64,000 nt of DNA from Gemmatimonadales bacterium (GTDB lineage: Bacteria; Gemmatimonadota; Gemmatimonadetes; Gemmatimonadales; GWC2-71-9). A program made the position numbers and the translations under genes. Positions within the stretch are counted from its first letter, which is position 1; each line of letters begins with the position of its first letter. Location of the stretch: the NCBI GenBank assembly GCA_044229245.1, contig JBGATI010000002.1, positions 261,302 through 325,301 on the forward strand, in the 5' to 3' direction. Shown piece after piece: positions 3,303 through 41,546 of the stretch. The notes beneath the pieces are model-generated. The model saw nothing but the letters and a program-made list of their open reading frames with translations, made no database searches and was not told the origin of the DNA.

Positions 3303-3680
3303 TCAGGAATGAGGGAGGCCGAGCAGGGTGGAGAAAGCCTTCCTCAGGGCGCCTGTTGCTGCGAGCTCGGCCCGACTCCAGGCTGCCTGGTTGCCGGCCG
3401 GTCGTTCGGGATAGAGTGCCTGAACGATTTCTTCCAGGCGCCTGGGAGGAGGCGGTGCCAGGCCGGCAGGGACGGGCAGCGGCACCCTGCGTGACGCCTG
3501 CGGTTCGAGCGCCACTGCCTCACGAGAGACCGCCTCCCGACGGCGGGGCTCAGGCTCCGGGTCCGGAGCGGCCGTCGCCAGCGCCGTGGGCGGATTGCGC
3601 CGCGGCGGGTCGAGTGAGCCACCCGGGTCGGGGATGGGCAGGAAACGCGGCAGTCGAGCCTGCTTCTGAAGGACGTCCAA
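3303..3680 (-). CDS. proline-rich hypothetical protein
   Basis: 125-aa ORF co-oriented with the neighbouring genes, with mostly G/C third positions. Competes with two other long overlapping ORFs. No family recognised. Confidence 0.3.
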   Translation of the reverse strand: MDVLQKQARLPRFLPIPDPGGSLDPPRRNPPTALATAAPDPEPEPRRREAVSREAVALEPQASRRVPLPVPAGLAPPPPRRLEEIVQALYPERPAGNQAAWSRAELAATGALRKAFSTLLGLPHS

Positions 3681-3825
3681 ACATGGGGAGCGGTACCGGG
3701 AGCGGCAAGCCGCTCCAGAGAGGCAGTCGGTCGCCTCCTCTCCCGCCCCACACCGAAACCGCGCACCGACCCCTCGGATCGATGCGCGGCTTTGGTAGCG
3801 TAGTTGCCCTGCCCCGCACCTGCTC

Positions 3826-26016: not shown

Positions 26017-28623
26017 ATGGCCGCCTTCCTGAGCAATCTGCGCCGGAGTGGTTCCGCGGAGGATCTCGCCGAGCTGCAGCAGCTCGTGACCCGTCTCGAA
26101 TCCCAGCGCGGCAGTCTCGAACAGCTCGTCCAGCACGCCGACCGCTCCATCGGTCAGCTGCAGCGACTCGGCACCCTCGGTGAGCGGGTGAACACCCTCG
26201 AACGCCAGCTCTCCGGGATCGAGCATCTCGCCGCCCGGCTCGGCGCGGCCGAGAGTCAGCTCGCCGGACTCGCCGGCACCCACAACCGGCTCGAGACCCA
26301 GATGGCGGAAACCGCCACCGGCATCGAGCAGGCGCGGGTGGACGTGACGCTGCTGACCGAGACCGTGGCCGCGACCGCGCGGCTGAAGGACGAACTCTCC
26401 GGCTTCCTCTCCCTCAAGGGGCCGTTCAGCCAGCTCAAGTCCGAGATGGAGGGGCTGCAGTCGCAGAACGAGGCCTTCCGCGCCGACTTCGCCCGGCTCC
26501 GCGATCAGCACGACGCCACCCTCAACAGCTACAAGACGGCGTCGGGCCGGATCGAGTCGTTCGACGGCGACTGGCAGCGGATCACCCGCACCGTCGCCGA
26601 GACCGAGAACCGCATCAGCGGGCTTGAGCAGCTCGTCGCCGACATGATGGGGGTCGCCGAATCGGTGGCGCAGACCAAGCGCCAGCTCGCCGGCGCCAAG
26701 GCGATGGCCGATCAGCTCGGCCAGAAGGTGGCGCTTCTCGAGCAGCAGCGGGACGAGGTCGATCGCGCCACCGCCAAGCTCGAGCACCTCACCGCGCTGA
26801 TGCAGCGGGTGGACCAGGGCGCCGAACGCTCCAGCGAAGCGGTGCGCACCGTCGCCGCGCTCCGCACCGAGCTCGAGTCGCTCGAAGAGGCGCAGACCGC
26901 GCTCACCGAGCGGAGCCGCTCCGTCACCGAACGGCTCGAACGGATCGAAAGCGGCCAGACCGCGGCGGAGCGGAGTCTCGTTTCGCTCCGCGAAGGGCTC
27001 GACCAGAGCACCGAGCGGCTCGCGCTCGAGAGCCGGAGCGTGGAGGGGATGGGGCAGCGGGTCGGCGACCTCCGCCGGAACCTCTCCGAGTGGGAGGCGC
27101 GCTTCGCGACCCTCGCCGCCGGCGCGGAGGCGATCACCACCGCCGCCTCGAAGGCCGACACCCTCTCGACCCAGGTCACCAGTCTTACGGGCGAACTCGC
27201 CCGCGTCGCCGAGCTCGGATCGCGGGTTCGCACCGGGCTCGCCGATCTCGAACGGCTCGAGGAGGGGATCGGCGGACTCACCGAGCGCACCTGCCGGCTG
27301 GAGGAGTCGCGCCCGCTGCTCGAGCGCACCGTCCGCGATCTCTCCGGACTCGGCGCCACCGAGGAGGCGATTCACGAGGCGCTCGAACAGCTCCGCGGCG
27401 CCCGCAAGGAGCTGAGCGACACCCGCGGCACCCTCGATCAGACCCGCACCTGGCTCGGCGAGACCGACCGGAGCGTCGCGGCGCTGAAGACCGATGTCGC
27501 CGGACTCGACCGGATGCGCGCCACGGTGGATGCGCTCCGCCAGGAGCTGGAGCAGCTCAACAGCCAGATGACCGTGGTCGAAGGGCGGCGCGGCGTGGTG
27601 GACGACGTGCAGAAGCGCCTGACGGAAGCGGCGGGGATGGGCGCCTCGATGGAGGCGCGCGCCCGCGGGCTCGCCGAGCGGCTGGAGGCGGCGGAGGATC
27701 ATCTCGGGACGCTGGTGCCGAGGCTCGATGAGGTCGGGCGCGCGGGGAACCAGCTCGTGAGTCTCGGCGCCGAGGTGCGGGAGATGGAAGAGCGGGTGCG
27801 TGCGGTGCAGGGGACGGTGAAGGGGGTCGAGCAGCGCGCGAGCGGGCTCGAGACCCTCGCCAACCGGATGCAGGAGCTCTCCCGCGAGATCGATCAGCGC
27901 CAGAATGCGCTCGCCAGGGCGACCGAGCATCTCGATCGCGCCGCGACGCTCCGGCAGGAGGCGGCGGTCGCCGCGCAGACCCTGGCCGACCGGGCGCGGG
28001 AGGTGGATGCATCGCTGGTTGCCGCGGATCAGCGGCTCACGAGCTGTGATTCGCTGTCGCGCGAGCTGGAGGCGCGGATCGGGGTGCTCAACAGTGCGCA
28101 GGAGCGGATCACCGGCTTCGAGGCAAAGCTGGCCGACTGGCGCGGGGCGGAGCAGCAGCTCGCGCAGGCGATGGAGCAGGCGGTCGCGCGGCAGGCGACG
28201 ATCGCCTCGCTGCAGAGCGAGATCCGGGCACTCTTCGATCTGGCGGAACGCACCCAGGACGATGCCCGCGCGGTGACGGCGGCGCAGCCGCAGATGGCCC
28301 GCGCCCGGAGCGAGCTCGACGCGCTCCTCGCGCGGCTCGGCGACACCGACGGCATCATGCAGACACTGGAGGATCGCCGCCGCCAGCTCGACCGCACCGA
28401 GGAGCGGCTGGCCCACGCCGACCTGCTCGCCACCGATGTGCGGGAGTCGCTCGAGACCCTGGTCGCCCAGAAGGCGCAGGTGGATCACTTCCTCGGCATG
28501 GCGAGCGCGCTCACCCTGGAGACCAAGCGGGTCGAGGGGCTGCTCGAGGCGCTCCGTGACGAGCGCCGCCTCTCCGACCGGGTGCAGTCGTCGCTGGCCG
28601 GATTGCGGCGGCAACCCGAATAA
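26017..28623 (+). CDS. 868-aa all-coiled-coil protein
   Basis: Continuous Leu/Glu/Ala/Arg/Gln heptad-like sequence with high GC3. No enzymatic motif (no Walker A) was seen. Confidence 0.75.
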   Translation: MAAFLSNLRRSGSAEDLAELQQLVTRLESQRGSLEQLVQHADRSIGQLQRLGTLGERVNTLERQLSGIEHLAARLGAAESQLAGLAGTHNRLETQMAETATGIEQARVDVTLLTETVAATARLKDELSGFLSLKGPFSQLKSEMEGLQSQNEAFRADFARLRDQHDATLNSYKTASGRIESFDGDWQRITRTVAETENRISGLEQLVADMMGVAESVAQTKRQLAGAKAMADQLGQKVALLEQQRDEVDRATAKLEHLTALMQRVDQGAERSSEAVRTVAALRTELESLEEAQTALTERSRSVTERLERIESGQTAAERSLVSLREGLDQSTERLALESRSVEGMGQRVGDLRRNLSEWEARFATLAAGAEAITTAASKADTLSTQVTSLTGELARVAELGSRVRTGLADLERLEEGIGGLTERTCRLEESRPLLERTVRDLSGLGATEEAIHEALEQLRGARKELSDTRGTLDQTRTWLGETDRSVAALKTDVAGLDRMRATVDALRQELEQLNSQMTVVEGRRGVVDDVQKRLTEAAGMGASMEARARGLAERLEAAEDHLGTLVPRLDEVGRAGNQLVSLGAEVREMEERVRAVQGTVKGVEQRASGLETLANRMQELSREIDQRQNALARATEHLDRAATLRQEAAVAAQTLADRAREVDASLVAADQRLTSCDSLSRELEARIGVLNSAQERITGFEAKLADWRGAEQQLAQAMEQAVARQATIASLQSEIRALFDLAERTQDDARAVTAAQPQMARARSELDALLARLGDTDGIMQTLEDRRRQLDRTEERLAHADLLATDVRESLETLVAQKAQVDHFLGMASALTLETKRVEGLLEALRDERRLSDRVQSSLAGLRRQPE

Positions 28624-28683
28624 CCCGCGGGCCGCACCACTCAGTAGCCCGCGGCCTCCGTGCCGCGGGCTATCTTTGTTCCC

Positions 28684-34705: not shown

Positions 34706-35542
34706 ATGCACGCGCTGCCTCACGAGTCGCCCGCTCCGCTCGGCAATACCCGCTCCTTCCTCATCGCCTTCCTCGGGCTCACCGGCATCATGTTCGCCGA
34801 CCAGCTCCGGCAACGACTGCCGGTGCTGGTGGGCCGCCTCGATCTCGCGCATGCGGCGACGATCCTGCTGCTCACCCTGCCGTTCATCGTCGCGGTCACC
34901 CTGCCGGGTGCCGTGCTGGTCTCGGCGGCGTACAGCTTCAGTCGGCCGGGCGTGCGCCCGCTCCGGCACACACTCCTCGCGGCCTTCGGCCTCAGCGTCA
35001 TGGCCTATCTGCTGGTGGATCAGCTGGTGCCGCGAACCAATGCCACCCTGAGGGAGCGCTACATCGCGCTGCAGGCGCCGCGGGGGACGCCGCCCGTGAC
35101 CGGGATCAAGGGCGACCGGGAGATGACGATCGCGGAGATGCGGGCCGTGGTGCGGGAAGCTGAAGTGGGGATGTTCAAGGCCGGCGAGAGCGCCGATCTC
35201 GAGATGATGGATGCGGCGGCCGCCAGGATAGCCCAGTACCGGGTGGAGATCGAGAAGAAGCGCGCGACGGCGGCGGCCTGTCTCGTCTTTGCGCTTACCG
35301 GCGCGGGACTCGGCCTGCGCCTCGCGGGGCGGCGCTGGTGGATTCCGGTCGGCGCGGGCGCCGGGCTCGTCGCGTTCAACTACGCCGCCATCGTCGTCGG
35401 CGAAGAGCTGGGGAATGCGCGGACACTCTCGCCCGTGCTGGCGATGTGGGGTGGGAATCTCCTCCTCGGTGCGCTCGGCGTCGCGCTCCTCTGGCAGGCG
35501 AGGCGCGCGCCCCGGCCGGCACCCCTTCCGACGGGCAGCTAG
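34706..35542 (+). CDS. LptF/LptG (YjgP/YjgQ) family permease-like membrane protein
   Basis: The TM layout and LLLTLPFIVAVTLPGAVLVSAAYSF resemble the family. It is shorter than usual, so the assignment is tentative. Confidence 0.55.
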   Translation: MHALPHESPAPLGNTRSFLIAFLGLTGIMFADQLRQRLPVLVGRLDLAHAATILLLTLPFIVAVTLPGAVLVSAAYSFSRPGVRPLRHTLLAAFGLSVMAYLLVDQLVPRTNATLRERYIALQAPRGTPPVTGIKGDREMTIAEMRAVVREAEVGMFKAGESADLEMMDAAAARIAQYRVEIEKKRATAAACLVFALTGAGLGLRLAGRRWWIPVGAGAGLVAFNYAAIVVGEELGNARTLSPVLAMWGGNLLLGALGVALLWQARRAPRPAPLPTGS

Positions 35543-36249
35543 AGCGACGCCAGCGCGGCGAGGGCGCCGGCGGCATTCGGTGCCTCGGAGACCGCCGCCG
35601 GTTCCCATCCCAGTGAGCGCGCAGTCGCCGCGGTGGCACGGCCGAGACAGACCAGGGCCGGGCGCCGCCGTCCGGCGGTGACTTCCGCCGCGCGGGTCAG
35701 CACCAGGTGGCTCCCGATCAGCACCGCATCCGACTGCCGCAGCACGCTCATCGTCTGCTCCGGCGAGGCGAGCGTGGTGCGGTACACCACGATCTGGTCC
35801 ACCTGGATCCCGGCGGCGCGGAGCCGGGCAGGGAATTCCGGCCGCGCGTCGGCGCCGCAGGGATAGAGCAGCGGGCCCCGCGCTCCCGATGATATGACCG
35901 CGTCCGCCAGGCCGTCCCCGCCGATCGAGACCGGAGGCGCCTCCACCCTCGCAAAGGCGGCGAGGGGCGCCCCGGTCGTCGGCCCGATCGCCCAGACCCG
36001 CATCGTCTCCGGCAGATGCATCTGCCCCGCCGCCTCGAGTCGCCGGGCCAGTGCGAGCGAGCCCCGCGGCGAGGTGAGCCCGAGCAGCGGGTACTGCTCG
36101 ATCCGCGCGATGGCGCGGTCGAGCTCCGCCCAGCTCTCCGGCGACTTGAAGTGGAGCAGCGGCGACTCAACCGGCTCGTGCCCCAGCTTCTGGATGCCGG
36201 GGATGAGTCCAGGGAGCGAACCGGGGGAGAGGGTGATGGTGACGATCAT
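35539..36249 (-). CDS. hemD: uroporphyrinogen-III synthase
   Basis: HemD-like two-lobe pattern (LLGLTSPRG, VWAIGPTTG, VLIGSH). Overlaps the hemA stop. Confidence 0.7.
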   Translation of the reverse strand: MIVTITLSPGSLPGLIPGIQKLGHEPVESPLLHFKSPESWAELDRAIARIEQYPLLGLTSPRGSLALARRLEAAGQMHLPETMRVWAIGPTTGAPLAAFARVEAPPVSIGGDGLADAVISSGARGPLLYPCGADARPEFPARLRAAGIQVDQIVVYRTTLASPEQTMSVLRQSDAVLIGSHLVLTRAAEVTAGRRRPALVCLGRATAATARSLGWEPAAVSEAPNAAGALAALASL

Positions 36250-37280
36250 GCCGCACCCGCGAAGTGCCGGGCGCGGGCGCCGAGCCAGGTGCGAAAGGCC
36301 CGTGCCTCGACCTCTACGATTTCATCCGCGGCTTCTCTCACGAGGACATTGGTCGCCGCGTACCCCGCGAGATCCTGCAGGCCGAGCAGCGTCACGCCGT
36401 CGAGCATCGCCACGCCATCGTCGGCGTTGCGGGGGAAGCCGAGATCGAGCAGCAGCAGCGGATGCGCCACGCGGCCGGCAGCCACGCGTGACTCGTGGAG
36501 CGCCGCGCTGGTGAGAATCGGTTCGCGGGCGCCGGTGGCGAGGATCGCGGCATCGGCGCGGGCGACGAGGTCGTGACGCGCCTCGAATGGCGCCACTGTA
36601 GCACCAACCTCACGGGCAAAGCTCTCGGCCCGCTCCCCGTCCCGATTGCCGATCGTCAGCCTGGCGCCGAGTGCCACCAATGCCCGTGCCGCCGCCTCGG
36701 CCGCCTTCCCGGCGCCGAGCAGCAGCACTTCGGCGCCGTTCAGCTCCGGGAGCTGTGCCGCCACGACCTCCGCCGCGGCCGTACCGACGGAGGCGCGCCG
36801 CCGGCCGAACTCGGTGTCGTGGTGCACTCGCTTCCCGGCGCGGAGCGCCGTCTGGAAGATCCGGTGCAGCTCCGCGCCGACTCCGCCTGACTCGGCGGCC
36901 TGCGCATAGGCCGCGCGCACCTGGCCGAGCGCCTGCACGTCTCCTTCGATCCGGGATGCGAGCCCCGCCGCCACCCGGAGCAGGTGACGCACGGCGGCGT
37001 CGCCCCGGTGGCACGTCGCAAGGGCGAGGAACCGGTCGGCGAGCCCGGGCGCGTGGCGACGGCCGATCGCGAGCACGCCGGCGACGACACTCCGCGGCTC
37101 CGCCTGCTCGCTCCACACGATCAGCTCCACCCGATTGCAGGTCACCAGGAACGCGACCTGACAGCCGGTCGCGCGGCGCGCGATGCGGCCGAGCCGCGCC
37201 TCTGCCTCGGGCGGGAGCGCGAAGGGCTCGCGCTCCGCCACGCTCGAGTGGGCGTGATCGAGGGAGAAGATCGTCAGCAC
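36246..37280 (-). CDS. hemA: glutamyl-tRNA reductase
   Basis: FLVTCNRVEL active-site Cys motif and LLGAGKAAEAAARAL NADPH-binding motif. Confidence 0.85.
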   Translation of the reverse strand: MLTIFSLDHAHSSVAEREPFALPPEAEARLGRIARRATGCQVAFLVTCNRVELIVWSEQAEPRSVVAGVLAIGRRHAPGLADRFLALATCHRGDAAVRHLLRVAAGLASRIEGDVQALGQVRAAYAQAAESGGVGAELHRIFQTALRAGKRVHHDTEFGRRRASVGTAAAEVVAAQLPELNGAEVLLLGAGKAAEAAARALVALGARLTIGNRDGERAESFAREVGATVAPFEARHDLVARADAAILATGAREPILTSAALHESRVAAGRVAHPLLLLDLGFPRNADDGVAMLDGVTLLGLQDLAGYAATNVLVREAADEIVEVEARAFRTWLGARARHFAGAA

Positions 37281-38764
37281 GGTACCCCGGTACCCACGGC
37301 GCGTGCCGCCACGTTGCCGACGACGATGATCACCGGCGCTACCAGCCCGTCGCGGTCGGCGGCATCGGCGATCGTTGCGAGCGTCGCCGCCGTCACCCGC
37401 TGCTTCGAAGTGGTGCCGCTCTGCACGCAGGCGGCCGGCGTATCGGGGTCACGGCCCGCGGCGATCATCTCGTCGGCCAGCTCGCGCAGCACCGAGCGCC
37501 CCATGAGCAGCACCAGGGTCTCGATGTCGGCGTTGGCGGCGAGGGCCCGCACCGCCTCGGGGCGTTCGCCGCCCTCGCCGTGCGCGGTGATCACCGCGAA
37601 GGAGCGCGACTCGCCTCGCGCCGTCACCGGAATCCCCGCCGCTGCCGGTACGGCGATGGCGCTGGTGATGCCGGGGACGACGGTGCAGGGGATCCCGTAC
37701 AGGGCGCAGGCATCCATCTCCTCGGAGCCGCGCCCGAAGACGAAGGGATCGCCCCCCTTGAGGCGGACGACGCTCCGCCCCGCCAGCGCATGCTCGACGA
37801 GGAGGGCGTTGATCCGCTCCTGGCTGGTGCCTTCTCCGCCGGGCAGCTTGCCGACGTCGATGACCAGCGCGTCGCGGCGAACTTCGCTGAGCAGTTCCGG
37901 GGCGGAGAGCCGGTCGTGCAACACCACGTCGGCGCCGCGGAGCAGCGACAGGCCGCGCACCGTGATCAGTCCCGGATCGCCCGGGCCGGCGCCGACCAGT
38001 GCGACCGATCCCGGCTCGATCGTCGCCGGCGTTCCCGCAGCGGGAAGCTCCCGCCGCGCGATCTCGAGGAGCAGGTCGCCGAGTACCGGGTACGCGCCCA
38101 CCGGCTCGTCCAGCACGATGCGGCGCTCGGCGTCGCCACCGATTCGGCGCGGGAGATCCTCGAGCGCGTGCCCGCCGCCGCCGATGAGGAAGGGCACGAC
38201 GATGACCCACCGATGTCTCAGCGAGGCGAGCGCCTCCTCGATCCCCGGTTCGTCGTCGAGGAATCCGGAGGCCACCTCGGAGGCGGCGCCGCGCGCGAGC
38301 AGCGCCTGCGCCAGCTGCTGCGTGGCCAGCCTGCTGTTCGGGTTGCGGGGGGTGCCGTGCCCGACGAGCAGCACGCTCGTCGTGTCGAGGTCGAGGTGCT
38401 CCCGCCTCGCTACTGCGGCAATCCGCTCGGCCACGAGCCGCTCGATGCCCGGGTGGACACCGAGCGGCGCCGCCTGATGGAGCCGCACCGCATGGAAGCG
38501 CGCGCTCCGCGCGAGCGCGGCCGGGAGCACCTGCTCGGTGTAATACCCCGCGCTGGTGAAGAGCGGCAGCACCAGTACCAGATCGGCGGTGAGCTGGTCG
38601 AGCGCGGCGGTGAAGCCCGGCTCGCCCTGGTGGAAGCCGGCGACGACTTCGTCCGCGGCACCGCGCGCGAGCAGCTCCCGGGCGAGTGCGCGCACCCGGT
38701 CGTTCGCCGCGGAGTCGCGGCGGGCGCCGTGGGCCGCGAGGAGAATCGCCGTCCGCGCGCTCAC
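37274..38764 (-). CDS. fusion of two CbiX/SirB-type chelatase domains with uroporphyrinogen-III C-methyltransferase
   Basis: N-terminal ILLAAHGAR... and LLVGHGTPRN are CbiX-like. C-terminal VALVGAGPGDPGLITVRGL...VVRLKGGDPFVFGRG is SUMT. Confidence 0.85.
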   Translation of the reverse strand: MSARTAILLAAHGARRDSAANDRVRALARELLARGAADEVVAGFHQGEPGFTAALDQLTADLVLVLPLFTSAGYYTEQVLPAALARSARFHAVRLHQAAPLGVHPGIERLVAERIAAVARREHLDLDTTSVLLVGHGTPRNPNSRLATQQLAQALLARGAASEVASGFLDDEPGIEEALASLRHRWVIVVPFLIGGGGHALEDLPRRIGGDAERRIVLDEPVGAYPVLGDLLLEIARRELPAAGTPATIEPGSVALVGAGPGDPGLITVRGLSLLRGADVVLHDRLSAPELLSEVRRDALVIDVGKLPGGEGTSQERINALLVEHALAGRSVVRLKGGDPFVFGRGSEEMDACALYGIPCTVVPGITSAIAVPAAAGIPVTARGESRSFAVITAHGEGGERPEAVRALAANADIETLVLLMGRSVLRELADEMIAAGRDPDTPAACVQSGTTSKQRVTAATLATIADAADRDGLVAPVIIVVGNVAARAVGTGVPC

Positions 38765-40494
38765 GTGAGACTGCCGATCTGCACCAGCGCCGAGGTGGGG
38801 CTCTCCCTGCCGGTGATCGACTGGCGCGGCGTGTCGCGCGGCAGGAGCCGCTGGTAGAAGTCGCCCAGTCCCTCGTCAGGCAGCCCTTCCGCGGCCCAGC
38901 GGATGAGCAGGGGCCGGAGGGCGTTGAGCAGCTCCCCCTCCTTCACCTGCGCCATGTAGAGATCGGCCACCCGGTTCCCAGCGAGGCTCCCGCCGACGTA
39001 GATCTGGTACAGTCCGAGCGAGCGCCCCACGAAGGCGATGTCGGCGGTGTAGGGCCGGGCGCAGCCGTTGGGGCAGCCGGTCATGCGGATCGTGATCGGC
39101 GTGTCGCGCCGGCCGAGTGCTTCGAGTTCCTCCTCGAACTGATCGAGCAGCGCCGGCAGCGCCCGCTCCGACTCCGCGACCGCGAGGCCGCAGGTGGGGA
39201 GGGCGGGGCAGGCCATCGAGTAGCGCCGGGCGGCGGGCAGCTCCTGCGCGGGGGTCACCCCCGCCTCACGCAGCGCCGTTTCGATCGCCCGCACCTGCGC
39301 TTCGGTGAGCCCGGTGAAGAGCAGGTTCTGCTGGCCGGTGAGCGCGAGTCCGGGGCGGAAGCGCTCGATCACCGTGCGGAGCGCAGTGCGGAGCGGCTGC
39401 CGCTCGGTGTCCGCGATCCGGCCGCTCTGGATGAAGACGCCGTAGAACCAGCTTCCATCCGTGGTGCGATGGGCACCGAGGTGGTCGTGGAAGGCGGGCG
39501 TGGGGAGCTCGACCGCGGGGAGCAGCGGGAACTCCGCGCGGCGGCGGAACTCCTCGCGGAAGCGGTCGATGCCCCACTCGTTGATCAGGTACTTGAGCCG
39601 CGCGTGGCGCCGGTCGGCGCGATTGCCATGGTCGCGGAAGATCGCCGCGACGTGCCGGATTGCGGCGGCGCCATGCTCCTCGGCCACGAAGCCGAGCGGC
39701 TCGGCGAGCCGGGCGAGGGTGTCGCCCTTCCCGTGGGTCATGCCGAGCCCGCCGCCGACCAGCACGTTGAAGCCGCGGATCGTCTCGCCGTCGACGACGG
39801 CGAGGAGCCCCGCGTCCTGGGAGTAGATGTCGATGCAGTTGTCGGTCGATAGCGCGACGCCGGTCTTGAACTTCCGCGGCAGGTACTGCTTGCCGTAGAA
39901 GGGCTCCTCGACCTGGGTGTTCACCTGCTGCTCCTCGTCGAGCCAGATCTCGTAATAGGCGCGCGACTTCGGATTGAGCTCGTCGGCGATCCGCTCCGCC
40001 GCGCGGCGCACCGCCGCGTGGGCCGGGTGATCGAGGTCCACCGGGCAGCCCATCACGTTGCGGCGCACGTCGCCGCAGGCCGCGATCGTGGTCGCGAGCG
40101 AGGCGTTGATCGCCTGGATGGTCGGCTTGAGCTCGCCCTTGAGCACGCCGTGGAACTGGAACCCCTGGCGGGTGGTGATCCGCAGGGTGCCGTTGGCGTG
40201 CGCGCCGGCGATCGCGTCGAAGGCGAGGTACTGCTCTGCCGTCAGCAGCCCGGCCGGCAGCGCCACCCGCACCATGAACGACCAGGACTTCTCCTCCTCG
40301 CCGCGGGCCTTCCGCGCGTCGCGGTCGTCCTGCTGATAGGTGCCGTGGAACTTGAGGAGCTGCAGGTCGTCGTGCCCGAAGTGGGTCGCCTCCGACGCCA
40401 GCGTCTCGGCGATCGTGCCGCGGAGCTGGCGTCCGTCGCGCTTGGCGACCTCGACCTTCGATTCCTCTGTCTGCTGCTTGCTGGTCCGGTCCAT
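38761..40494 (-). CDS. cysI: sulfite reductase hemoprotein (siroheme/4Fe-4S)
   Basis: LLKFHGTYQQDDRD and TGCPNGCARP motifs. Start trimmed to ATG 40494 (MDRTSKQQ...). Confidence 0.9.
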   Translation of the reverse strand: MDRTSKQQTEESKVEVAKRDGRQLRGTIAETLASEATHFGHDDLQLLKFHGTYQQDDRDARKARGEEEKSWSFMVRVALPAGLLTAEQYLAFDAIAGAHANGTLRITTRQGFQFHGVLKGELKPTIQAINASLATTIAACGDVRRNVMGCPVDLDHPAHAAVRRAAERIADELNPKSRAYYEIWLDEEQQVNTQVEEPFYGKQYLPRKFKTGVALSTDNCIDIYSQDAGLLAVVDGETIRGFNVLVGGGLGMTHGKGDTLARLAEPLGFVAEEHGAAAIRHVAAIFRDHGNRADRRHARLKYLINEWGIDRFREEFRRRAEFPLLPAVELPTPAFHDHLGAHRTTDGSWFYGVFIQSGRIADTERQPLRTALRTVIERFRPGLALTGQQNLLFTGLTEAQVRAIETALREAGVTPAQELPAARRYSMACPALPTCGLAVAESERALPALLDQFEEELEALGRRDTPITIRMTGCPNGCARPYTADIAFVGRSLGLYQIYVGGSLAGNRVADLYMAQVKEGELLNALRPLLIRWAAEGLPDEGLGDFYQRLLPRDTPRQSITGRESPTSALVQIGSLT

Positions 40495-40513
40495 CCGGTC
40501 CCGTCCTCTCGAG

Positions 40514-41218
40514 TCAGATTCCGCTGCCGTTGCTGTGCAGGCCGCACTCGGTCTTTCCGGTGCTGTCCCAGCGGCCCAGCCTGGTGTATTCGGTGACGCT
40601 CCCGCCGGCCACGGCGCGGGTGCACTGCACGCAGCCGATGCTCGGGTAGCCCCGCTCGTGAAGCGGGTTGTATGGCACATCGTGCGACTGCACGTACTCC
40701 CACACCCGCTTCCGGTCCCAGTTGGCGAGCGGGCTGATCTTGAGCAGCTGGAACTGCCAGTCCCAGCCGATCAGTGGGGTCTCGGCGCGGGTCGCCGACT
40801 GCTTCCGGGTGATGCCGGTGATCCAGACCTCGACGCCGGCGAGGGCGGTGCGCATCGGGTCCACCTTGCGGATCTGGCAGCAGCGGTCGGCATCGCGGGC
40901 CCAGAGCTCCTCGCCATACAACTCGGCCTGGGCCGCGGGGGTGAGCGTGGTGCCGCGGTTCTCGAACCGGAGATGCGGGTAGCGCGCCGCCAGCCGGTCG
41001 CGGAGGGCGTAGGTCTCCGGGAAGAGGAACATCGTGTCGAGATAGACCACCGTGAGCGGGTGCCCATGCGACGCGTACATGTCGATCAGTGCGCAGCCTT
41101 CCATGCCGAACTGGGTCGTGATCACCATCGGCTGGTGCCCGAACCGTTCCAGCGTCCACCCGATGAACTCCCCGGTGTCCGTCGCCTCGGAGATCGCTGC
41201 GGTTGCCGTGTCGCTCAT
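40514..41218 (-). CDS. cysH: adenylylsulfate/PAPS reductase, Fe-S type
   Basis: CCQIRKVDP and SIGCVQCT cluster cysteines plus a C-terminal KTECGLH. Confidence 0.9.
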   Translation of the reverse strand: MSDTATAAISEATDTGEFIGWTLERFGHQPMVITTQFGMEGCALIDMYASHGHPLTVVYLDTMFLFPETYALRDRLAARYPHLRFENRGTTLTPAAQAELYGEELWARDADRCCQIRKVDPMRTALAGVEVWITGITRKQSATRAETPLIGWDWQFQLLKISPLANWDRKRVWEYVQSHDVPYNPLHERGYPSIGCVQCTRAVAGGSVTEYTRLGRWDSTGKTECGLHSNGSGI

Positions 41219-41268
41219 GCGTTCCGTTCCGTGGTGCCTGAGGGGGCCCGCTGCGCGGGCGGGATACG

Positions 41269-41305
41269 GAAAACGAAAAAGGCCCGCGGGAATCTCCCGC
41301 GGGCC
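41269..41305 (-). terminator. intrinsic terminator between the Cys/Met-rich sORF and cysH
   Basis: On the minus strand: GGCCCGCGGGA-GAT-TCCCGCGGGCC (a perfect 11-bp stem) followed by TTTTTCGTTTTCC. Confidence 0.7.
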
Positions 41306-41338
41306 GGACGACAGACTGCTCGACTGTCTATGCCGTAC

Positions 41339-41515
41339 TCAGGAGAATCCCCCGTCGTTGCCGATGCAATTACACATCGACATGCCCATACAGGCCGGCA
41401 TGCAGCAACAAACCCCCGCCTGATTGGCGGCGGCGGAATGCTGGCGGGAGAAGGTCAGAGACGGCATGAGGGCATGAATATGCATGCGAATGCGAGGTCC
41501 GTCAACGGGTTTCAT
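41339..41515 (-). CDS. Cys/Met-rich small ORF (58 aa), candidate leader peptide
   Basis: MKPVDGPRIRMHIHALMPSLTFSRQHSAAANQAGVCCCMPACMGMSMCNCIGNDGGFS. Many A/T-ending codons, which is atypical here. A GTG at 41524 is also possible. Confidence 0.4.
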   Translation of the reverse strand: MKPVDGPRIRMHIHALMPSLTFSRQHSAAANQAGVCCCMPACMGMSMCNCIGNDGGFS

Positions 41516-41546
41516 TTTTGTCACCGGCGTCGGTACTCGGAACTTC

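Follow-up and report, generated by a model that had tools for sequence, protein, structure and literature searches.

Regulation of amino acid biosynthesis by leader-peptide attenuation is classically known for the trp, his, leu, thr, ilv and pheA operons of Enterobacteria and for trp and ilvB of Actinobacteria, and in the leu leader rare CUA codons occupy the sensing positions. Sulfate assimilation is controlled elsewhere by protein regulators (CysB, CymR, McbR/CysR) or by S-adenosylmethionine (SAM) riboswitches, and to our knowledge almost nothing is known about gene regulation in the phyla Gemmatimonadota and Planctomycetota. The present work concerns an element located directly upstream of cysH in a Gemmatimonadales bacterium, which consists of a promoter, a short open reading frame (ORF) rich in Cys codons and an intrinsic terminator. 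It lies within a 64,000-nucleotide stretch of DNA (GenBank assembly GCA_044229245.1, contig JBGATI010000002.1, positions 261,302 to 325,301), the whole of which is referred to below as the window, and all coordinates are those of this stretch.

Leaders containing Cys codons have been described in some other groups of bacteria. In mycobacteria, leaderless polycysteine short ORFs that constitute the "Cys ribulon" act on translation (Canestrari et al., 2020; bioRxiv 10.1101/834739), and in Ms5788A, the characterized example, control is translational: the ribosome-binding site is sequestered and a terminator is lacking (bioRxiv 10.1101/834739). In the Rhodobacterales, the upstream ORF uORFC-8-2, which is found before cysS, is a predicted attenuator with tandem Cys codons and an intrinsic terminator stem followed by a U run (Brewer et al., 2021; PMC8632094). 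For the cys/cbs operons of Actinobacteria, candidate Cys leader peptides have been reported, for which Rho-dependent termination was proposed and no terminator hairpins were found (Seliverstov et al., 2005; PMC1262725). In the literature covered by our full-text searches, no Cys leader has been described ahead of cysH or sulfite reductase, nor any in the Gemmatimonadetes, in agreement with an initial annotation of this DNA, which had considered that a terminator-type Cys attenuator in front of these genes would be new.

Based upon the sequence of this locus and its comparison with related loci, the element is most likely a cysteine-responsive, ribosome-mediated (leader-peptide) transcription attenuator of the operon for cysH, sulfite reductase and sirohaem synthesis. 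A more specific model, in which the segment around the stop codon of the short ORF (region 2) acts as the antiterminator by pairing with the 5' arm of the terminator (region 3), appears probable, although it is proposed with less assurance. The comparison of about 50 loci supports the suggestion of the initial annotation that a sulfur-amino-acid leader-peptide attenuator is present ahead of cysH: in the alignment of the regions upstream of cysH, a Cys-rich short ORF, the terminator and a covarying alternative pairing are all conserved. The leader features, like the cysH operon, are all on the minus strand of the window, and they are as follows, in the order in which they would be transcribed.

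41500..41505, minus strand: -35 box TTGACG, from a promoter scan; TTGAC is kept in 42 of 43 leaders, at a distance of 35-38 nt to the in-frame ATG.
41477..41482, minus strand: -10 box CATATT, from a promoter scan, separated from the -35 box by a 17-nt spacer.
41339..41467, minus strand: leader short ORF of 42 codons plus TGA, MPSLTFSRQHSAAANQAGVCCCMPACMGMSMCNCIGNDGGFS; the position of its ATG is kept in all relatives.
41444..41467, minus strand: region 1, the 5' end of the mRNA including TCTCCCGC (41451-41444), which pairs with region 2 in the minimum-free-energy fold as a candidate protector helix.
41416..41433, minus strand: hairpin P1 (CCGCC-loop-GGCGG), predicted by folding, just upstream of the Cys codons.
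41366..41410, minus strand: regulatory codon cluster TGT TGC TGC ATG CCG GCC TGT ATG GGC ATG TCG ATG TGT AAT TGC, with 6 Cys and 4 Met in 15 codons.
41332..41346, minus strand: region 2, the antiterminator 5' strand UCUCC-UGA-GUACGGC, which runs from the final two codons through the stop codon to the CGGC motif.
41310..41328, minus strand: spacer hairpin P3 (GACAG...CTGTC), predicted by folding, inside the antiterminator loop; a hairpin of varying sequence is found there in relatives.
41281..41305, minus strand: intrinsic terminator GGCCCGCGGGA / TCCCGCGGGCC, with 11 pairs, 10 of them G-C, and a 3-nt loop.
41305-41295, 41294-41292 and 41291-41281, minus strand: region 3 (5' arm), loop and region 4 (3' arm) of the terminator, respectively.
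41299-41293, minus strand: antiterminator 3' strand CGGGAGA plus the base of the 5' arm, within the terminator 5' arm and loop.
41268..41280, minus strand: T tract TTTTTCGTTTTCC, directly after the terminator stem.

The promoter elements and the start of the short ORF are found at a nearly constant distance from each other. In 42 distinct leaders, an in-frame ATG is present 32-38 nt from the first base of TTGAC(A/G), mostly at 35-36 nt (38 nt in the window), and a -10-like hexamer, which at this position in the relatives reads CATATT, CATAAAT or TAnnnT, follows the -35 box at 17 nt and precedes the ATG by 5-9 nt. These 42 leaders lack a Shine-Dalgarno sequence ahead of the leader ATG, and in the window the ATG at 41467 is 9 nt past the -10 box. 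The spacing between promoter and ATG and the lack of a Shine-Dalgarno sequence thus correspond to the geometry of a leaderless mRNA, and the ORF would be leaderless or nearly so, with a 5' untranslated region of 0-3 nt expected in the window. The initial annotation had indicated a 58-amino acid (aa) ORF between the stop codon of the M61 peptidase gene and cysH. This frame does exist (ATG 41515 to TGA 41341-41339, or 61 aa when read from GTG 41524), but the conserved start at ATG 41467 gives a peptide of only 42 aa. The ATG at 41515 is upstream of the -35 box, and the ATG at 41485 that is chosen by gene callers overlaps the -10 box. Additionally, in the related locus L044, the first of two closely spaced ATGs is changed to ATT and the one at the conserved distance is retained.

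This ORF is rich in Cys and Met codons. As was pointed out initially, Cys or Met are present at 10 of the 15 positions from residues 36-50 of the 58-aa frame (CCCMPACMGMSMCNC), and this is beyond what is expected by chance: in 5000 dinucleotide-preserving shuffles of the 328-nt spacer between the M61 peptidase stop and the cysH start, which holds both the ORF and the terminator, no 15-aa segment contained more than 7 of these residues. In all six frames of the window, 15-aa segments with 9 or more Cys plus Met were found only at this locus. In the short ORFs of 41 leaders, Cys makes up 11.5% of the residues in comparison to 2.8% in CysH, and the corresponding values for non-start Met are 6.5 and 2.6%. 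The uncommon codons to which attention had been drawn (TGT three times, and also AAT, ATT and CAT) are indeed present in the ORF, whose GC content at third codon positions is 0.68-0.70 versus 0.90-0.93 in the neighbouring genes. The ratio of TGT to TGC is 106:74 (59% TGT) in the short ORFs, in contrast to 16:237 (6% TGT) in the adjacent cysH genes. The Cys codons differ synonymously (TGT/TGC) among relatives and the Cys run is kept in every leader, with CCC or alternating C-x-C runs present in all of them and Met following runs of at least two Cys in 17 of 28 cases. The position of the cluster is also constrained, as the last clustered Cys is 9-11 codons from the stop in 36 of the 41 leaders; in the window the last Cys is 9 codons, and the CCC run 21-23 codons, upstream of the stop codon. 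At the position of P1, the relatives have hairpins of other sequence (e.g., CGGGC/GCCCG or CCCAC/GTGGG).

A peptide so rich in Cys could in principle be a functional product, such as a metal-binding peptide or the precursor of a ribosomally synthesized and post-translationally modified peptide, in which case the terminator would simply end this small gene. The Cys-rich C-terminal part following a leader-like N-terminus, the prediction of the ORF by gene callers on two occasions (P0001 and P0002), and the conservation of C-terminal residues within subfamilies are consistent with this possibility. However, the peptide shows no match to any Pfam or NCBIfam family, no genes for maturation, export or immunity are present nearby in any locus (the neighbours are haem, sulfur or unrelated genes), and outside of the Cys run the sequence is not conserved between subfamilies. 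Further, the conserved C-terminal codons are explained by RNA pairing with the terminator, and the element always directly precedes cysH or a peroxiredoxin gene, so closely that another promoter would not fit. A functional peptide is hence considered highly improbable.

The leader RNA is strongly structured, with a folding energy for the 206-nt leader of -100.6 kcal/mol (z = -5.35 versus shuffles), and searches of Rfam with the window yielded SAM-Chlorobi as the best hit (20.9 bits). Both of these observations could be accommodated by a riboswitch binding SAM or a sulfur metabolite, with the open frame being incidental. However, the above match does not reach the gathering score of 35 (E = 0.76), and nothing relevant was identified in Rfam; for 14 related loci the Rfam searches gave no leader match and only unrelated thiamine pyrophosphate (TPP) riboswitches. 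A conserved multi-helix aptamer is not visible, and the parts of the leader that are conserved are the ATG at the start site, the synonymously varying Cys run and a stop codon whose spacing from the terminator is fixed. We therefore attach scarcely any weight to the riboswitch explanation.

Because the short-ORF family is nearly invisible in protein searches, the relatives were compared on the DNA upstream of cysH; among 5.8 billion proteins, searches with a single sequence and with a 7-sequence profile detected only the two called 48-aa ORFs, P0001 and P0002. The promoter, the Cys-run short ORF and the terminator are present ahead of cysH in about 50 loci among the matches listed, in which CysH is 58-99% identical, and their hosts are metagenome-assembled genomes (MAGs) of Gemmatimonadota and of Planctomycetota/Phycisphaerae as well as metagenomes. 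By its CysH protein the window belongs to the Gemmatimonadales, the CysH of one MAG contig being 99% identical. Six Gemmatimonadota MAGs (CysH 72-99% identical) contain a Cys-run short ORF, a GC-rich terminator and a TTGAC box upstream of cysH, and a metagenome scan with the CysH alignment added at least 71 further loci. The module is found in nearly every locus where CysH is at least 58% identical and enough upstream sequence is available, with the exception of L047, L059 and L052. In L047 (CysH 59% identical), a gene for an Rrf2-family (CymR/IscR-like) regulator is present directly upstream (ahead of 2501) in place of the Cys leader, which suggests that a protein regulator has replaced the attenuator there. 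The single genome scan yielded MAGs and two cultured strains not belonging to the Gemmatimonadota (Halalkalibaculum and Gorillibacterium; CysH 44-45%), both of which lack the element.

Four types of leader peptides can be distinguished within this family. Type 1, to which the window belongs, is of the form ...VCCCMPACMG...GGFS*, type 2 is ...ACCCM...PDRTT*, type 3 is ...CACMCMCACMENLPRDTF, and type 4 is ...CCRCTCCC...GGTP, which groups with Planctomycetota CysH sequences. In the subfamily with leaders of the form CACMCMCACM...TF, CysH is 66-71% identical to the Gemmatimonadota references. The same module and operon are found in relatives from Planctomycetota/Phycisphaerae MAGs with 63-65% CysH identity (L080, L081 and L086), and L083 and L084 are further Gemmatimonadota loci with the module ahead of the same operon.

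The gene located upstream of the module differs among these loci and includes an M61 peptidase, an aminotransferase, a peroxiredoxin, thiC and others. This bears upon the possibility that the hairpin does no more than terminate the M61 peptidase gene and that the ORF is a chance open frame. In the window, no other minus-strand terminator is present between 41547 and the hairpin, and read-through transcripts of the peptidase gene would therefore end at it. However, the module accompanies cysH behind differing upstream genes and with a conserved promoter of its own, the Cys plus Met content was reached in none of the 5000 shuffles, and the spacing between the stop codon and the terminator is conserved. 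It is thus most improbable that this hairpin serves the peptidase gene alone. A RiPP-like or metal-binding peptide and a simple peptidase terminator had both been listed as alternatives in the initial annotation, and the comparative data lend support to neither of them.

The terminator that would be controlled by this leader shows the properties which were described initially: a perfect 11-bp GC stem beginning 33 nt past the leader stop codon, followed by a T tract, with the distance from the latter to the cysH ATG being 49 nt. In 34 distinct leaders, the terminator stem is 99.3% paired and contains three covarying pairs. The stop codon and the stem are separated by 25-41 nt across the leaders, mostly 29-34 nt, and in 37 of 41 leaders only 16-64 nt are present between the stem and the cysH start, which thus leaves no room for a separate promoter. 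In the window, the promoter scan revealed no promoter-like site between the terminator and cysH from which this gene could be transcribed independently of the hairpin. An ordinary intrinsic terminator is also present elsewhere in the window, at 28643-28672 on the plus strand (AGCCCGCGGC / GCCGCGGGCT and a T run), after the gene (26017-28623) for an 868-aa coiled-coil protein.

The evidence for an alternative pairing of the terminator 5' arm came from folding the nascent RNA past a stalled ribosome up to the terminator loop, with the 3' arm left off. A recurrent helix was observed in which the last two codons of the ORF, its stop codon and a conserved CGGC pair with the terminator 5' arm and loop (the 2:3 helix). 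In its fixed register this helix is 82-84% paired, as compared to 36-50% in registers slid by 1-3 nt, and five of its pairs are changed on both sides in a compensatory manner. The covariation score for 2:3 is 0.219 versus 0.140 in shuffles, and none of 500 shuffles reached the former value. Nucleotide nine of the GCCCG arm (terminator position a+8), which is G or A, covaries both with the 3' arm (C/U) and with S-2 (C/U), located in the short ORF two nucleotides ahead of its stop codon, thus behaving as expected for a base with two alternative partners. In addition, covariation with the last codon of the ORF is seen for the loop nucleotides that the terminator leaves unpaired. Native 2:3 pairing is 3.4 kcal/mol better than that of partners swapped between subfamilies, and loci that were not used to derive the 2:3 register also fit it. 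The diverged terminator arms of L016 (GGCUUUCGGGA), which was absent from the register-deriving set as it has no detected terminator, and of L080 (GGCCUUCAGGA) are matched by changes at the ORF end and after the stop codon (ACCUGAcAAGCC and GUCCUGA, respectively). When a ribosome was modelled at the last clustered Cys, again without the 3' arm, the minimum-free-energy fold contained the antiterminator in 35 of 41 leaders, among them that of the window, where the antiterminator consists of UCUCCUG:CGGGAGA plus a short lower helix around hairpin P3. What the sequences and their comparison show directly is thus the set of parts, how these are spaced and conserved, and that the 3:4 and 2:3 helices covary.

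The antiterminator pairing also accounts for the conserved nucleotides at the ORF end, where the leader peptides terminate in PDRTT, PRDTF, GGFS or GGTP. In 31 of 34 leaders, the stop codon is followed by C (UAG-C or UGA-C; the position concerned is 41338 in the window), and a slow-termination context or an effect of the nascent peptide at the leader stop codon may prolong ribosome occupancy. The initial annotation had instead indicated TCTCCCGC, within the short ORF, as a competitor for the terminator 5' arm. This string was dropped as an antiterminator, since it is not conserved in L002, L009 and L015 (in L002, where CysH is 88% identical, it is replaced by CCTCCGCC); the conserved competitor is the stop-codon segment, and TCTCCCGC is now a part of region 1. 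The duplex between regions 1 and 2 in the window has an energy of -26.1 kcal/mol in comparison to -17.8 kcal/mol for partners from other subfamilies, and native 1:2 pairs are 3.4 kcal/mol better than swapped ones.

Based upon these features, we infer the transcription start, the translation of the short ORF, the stalling of ribosomes and the direction of regulation to be as follows. A strong sigma-70-type promoter (-35 at 41505, -10 at 41482) would start the mRNA at, or 2-3 nt before, the AUG, and the 42-codon ORF would supply the 6 Cys and 4 Met codons of the 15-codon cluster. When Cys-tRNA is plentiful, the ribosome would reach the stop codon and cover region 2, i.e., the last codons, the stop codon and CGGC, assuming that a ribosome protects about 15 nt on the upstream side and 12 nt on the downstream side of the A site. 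With region 2 masked in this manner, region 3 could pair only with region 4, and hence the hairpin and U tract would bring about termination before cysH. When Cys-tRNA is scarce, the ribosome would stall within the cluster, 9 or more codons ahead of the stop, leaving region 2 free to pair with the nascent region 3 around P3; this structure would be the antiterminator and lead to read-through into the operon. If the ORF is not translated, region 1 would pair with region 2 and the terminator would form. In addition to cysteine (charged tRNA-Cys), methionine (charged tRNA-Met) would probably also be sensed.

A number of observations weigh against this interpretation. The carriers of the element are all uncultured (MAGs or metagenome contigs) and its support is comparative throughout; as the sequences are related, the shuffle and Wilcoxon figures overstate significance. 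The leader promoter and the transcription start are placed by consensus only, and a 2-3 nt leader is likely in the window. Stems of the GCCCGCGG type also occur in ordinary terminators of this genome (e.g., that at 28643-28672), and as this stem is common to the latter and the cysH attenuator, its sequence is generic in the genome. The antiterminator of the window is weaker than in the relatives and is shifted by a 3-nt insertion (7 bp + 3 bp), and its energy of -14.9 kcal/mol represents a modest gain over the -12.1 +/- 2.9 kcal/mol of shuffles. In equilibrium folding with masked ribosome footprints, the terminator wins with a probability of about 1.0 in all four modelled states (free leader, ribosome stalled at either the first or the last Cys, and ribosome at the stop), and the switch must therefore be kinetic (co-transcriptional). 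The 1:2 helix is weak in comparison to shuffles (mean z about -0.9), and a lead ribosome stalled at the Cys cluster leaves region 1 uncovered, so that this helix could compete with the antiterminator; trailing ribosomes or kinetics must therefore block the 1:2 pairing.

Another possibility is that the attenuator is real but functions by a different mechanism, viz. pairing of the Cys-codon stretch with the terminator 5' arm, translational or Rho-dependent control, or the sensing of general translation capacity. The Cys-codon region often forms the strongest duplex with the 5' arm (e.g., CCUGCGCCUGCA:GCAGGCCCGCGGA), with energies of -17 to -22 kcal/mol (in the window, -16.3 kcal/mol), the terminator persists throughout equilibrium folding, and the mycobacterial Cys short ORFs are known to act on translation (bioRxiv 10.1101/834739). 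Nevertheless, the Cys-codon region was rejected as the antiterminator. This pairing, the best 5'-arm duplex in the upstream 100 nt, shifts in position and register among the subfamilies and is missing in some leaders, and a ribosome that stalls at the Cys codons would mask it, so that the regulation would have the wrong sign. The register of the 2:3 helix is fixed, its pairs covary and it is maintained by compensating variants in L016 and L080, and a strong intrinsic terminator with a U tract is kept in all leaders. We consider another mechanism of this kind unlikely.

The operon downstream of the attenuator and the gene preceding it are as follows.

41549-41547, minus strand: stop codon of the M61 peptidase ORF (Pfam PF17899/PF05299).
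40514-41218, minus strand: cysH (Pfam PAPS_reduct), with its ATG at 41218.
38761 to ~40497, minus strand: sulfite reductase (Pfam).
37274-38764, minus strand: CbiX/TP_methylase, i.e., CbiX/uroporphyrinogen methylase (Pfam).
36246-37280, minus strand: GlutR, hemA (Pfam).
35539-36249, minus strand: hemD (Pfam).
35539..41218, minus strand: the controlled operon cysH-sulfite reductase-CbiX-hemA-hemD, in which stop and start codons overlap or abut.

The same gene order is found in L080, L081, L083 and L086. The sulfite reductase ORF as listed (38761-40680, minus strand) encodes 639 aa and overlaps cysH by 167 nt. As its relatives are about 578 aa in length, the true start is probably the ATG near 40497 (MDRTSKQQ...), 16 nt past the cysH stop.

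The module is not limited to cysH. In L004 (2701-2782) and L005 (2793-2874), a second copy is found about 1.1 kb upstream, next to the cysH leader on its upstream side. This copy has a TTGACA promoter of its own and an apparently leaderless short ORF containing Cys (MSQPIPLCRLSPVPRRGEECCMEALRCLGAGPGAS in L005 and MPQPLALRQLTAPTGRGAACCRPTICMCLDTGTGAS in L004), and the gene that follows it encodes a 1-Cys peroxiredoxin (AhpC-TSA + 1-cysPrx_C). The module has thus been reused in these genomes, and it may define a small multi-operon cysteine regulon. A covariance model (R1) built on the stop-to-terminator segment recovers all leaders, and a regex search together with this model detected no copy in the window other than the cysH leader; a 21.5-bit match to R1 at 28595-28679 was rejected, being an ordinary terminator and not a second copy. 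One may also envisage, quite tentatively and with more doubt than confidence, a ribosome-read sulfur "ribulon" common to Gemmatimonadota and Planctomycetota, characterized by leaderless ORFs, a two-input sensor for cysteine and methionine made of interleaved rare UGU Cys codons and Met codons, and a stop codon within the antiterminator, which would control sulfite reduction/sirohaem synthesis and some 1-Cys peroxiredoxins and would have moved between the phyla with the cysH operon.

Several other observations were made on the regions upstream of cysH in the related loci. TPP riboswitches above the Rfam gathering score are present in L035:2025-2125 and L084:1998-2103 (minus strand), upstream of a divergently oriented thiC gene and beside the cysH leader. 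In L061, on a low-GC contig with a CysH that is 46% identical, an independent-looking short ORF (MACCCLKTHCYCINSV) at ~400-620 is followed by a terminator-like hairpin 143 nt before cysH, and these may represent convergent evolution of the same control. In L073 and L079 (CysH 37-42% identical), TAGAAnnnTTCTA-type palindromes occur upstream of cysH beside a divergent regulator gene, and the control there looks to be different and protein-based. Lastly, in L001, a 99%-identical relative, the M61 stop is separated from the leader promoter by about 190 additional nt (~3500-3700) that are absent from the window. This insertion consists of inverted arrays of 7-nt tandem repeats (GTTCCGA x3, CCCGGAA x5 and CTCGGTA/CTCGGAA ~x7) with a unique core, and may be a small mobile or hairpin-forming element.

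If the proposed interpretation is correct, it would provide a cis-regulatory mechanism for sulfate assimilation in both phyla, with a cysteine sensor that is read by the ribosome taking the place of the protein regulators or SAM riboswitches of other bacteria. Cys-sensing short ORFs, which in Actinobacteria are translational, would be extended to a version based upon transcription termination in two other phyla, and the leaders would constitute indirect evidence for leaderless translation in Gemmatimonadota and Planctomycetota. The alignment and covariance model also define a previously unannotated family of RNA/small ORFs, which can be used for annotation and for finding members of the regulon.

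In comparison with the known systems, the element resembles the classical attenuators in having a short ORF rich in codons for the end product, a terminator directly before the first structural gene, rare codons at the sensing positions, and mutually exclusive 2:3 and 3:4 pairings, with a possible 1:2 pairing in addition, among which the position of the leader ribosome would choose. It differs from them in that cysteine, probably with methionine, would be sensed and that the targets are sulfate reduction and sirohaem synthesis, in its apparently leaderless ORF without a Shine-Dalgarno sequence, in its Gemmatimonadota and Planctomycetota hosts, in the location of the regulatory codons between regions 1 and 2 and not inside region 1, in the participation of the stop codon in the antiterminator helix, and in having no match to an Rfam leader family. 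With the mycobacterial Cys ORFs it has in common an apparently leaderless, unannotated short ORF with consecutive Cys codons, an apparently constitutive promoter, a location ahead of sulfur/cysteine operons, and the presence of more than one locus per genome (two copies in L004 and L005). However, no sequence relationship was seen between the two, and the present element has interleaved Met codons, is found in other phyla and contains a conserved intrinsic terminator and an antiterminator; in view of this terminator it is not a member of the mycobacterial translational class. Tandem Cys codons, a terminator followed by a U run and predicted ribosome-mediated attenuation are common to this element and uORFC-8-2, but the latter controls a cysteinyl-tRNA synthetase, has its two Cys codons inside the first stem, is from Alphaproteobacteria and is not reported to be leaderless; the two are unrelated sequence families, and the present element is followed by cysH or a gene for a 1-Cys peroxiredoxin. 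The cys/cbs leaders of Actinobacteria similarly have runs of Cys codons near the stop and are located ahead of genes for cysteine biosynthesis, whereas in the family described here the terminator and the alternative pairing are the best-conserved parts. While leader-peptide attenuation itself is textbook knowledge, the family, its hosts and its putative regulon are new, and the comparison of these sequences provides good support for placing the element among the leader-peptide transcription attenuators.

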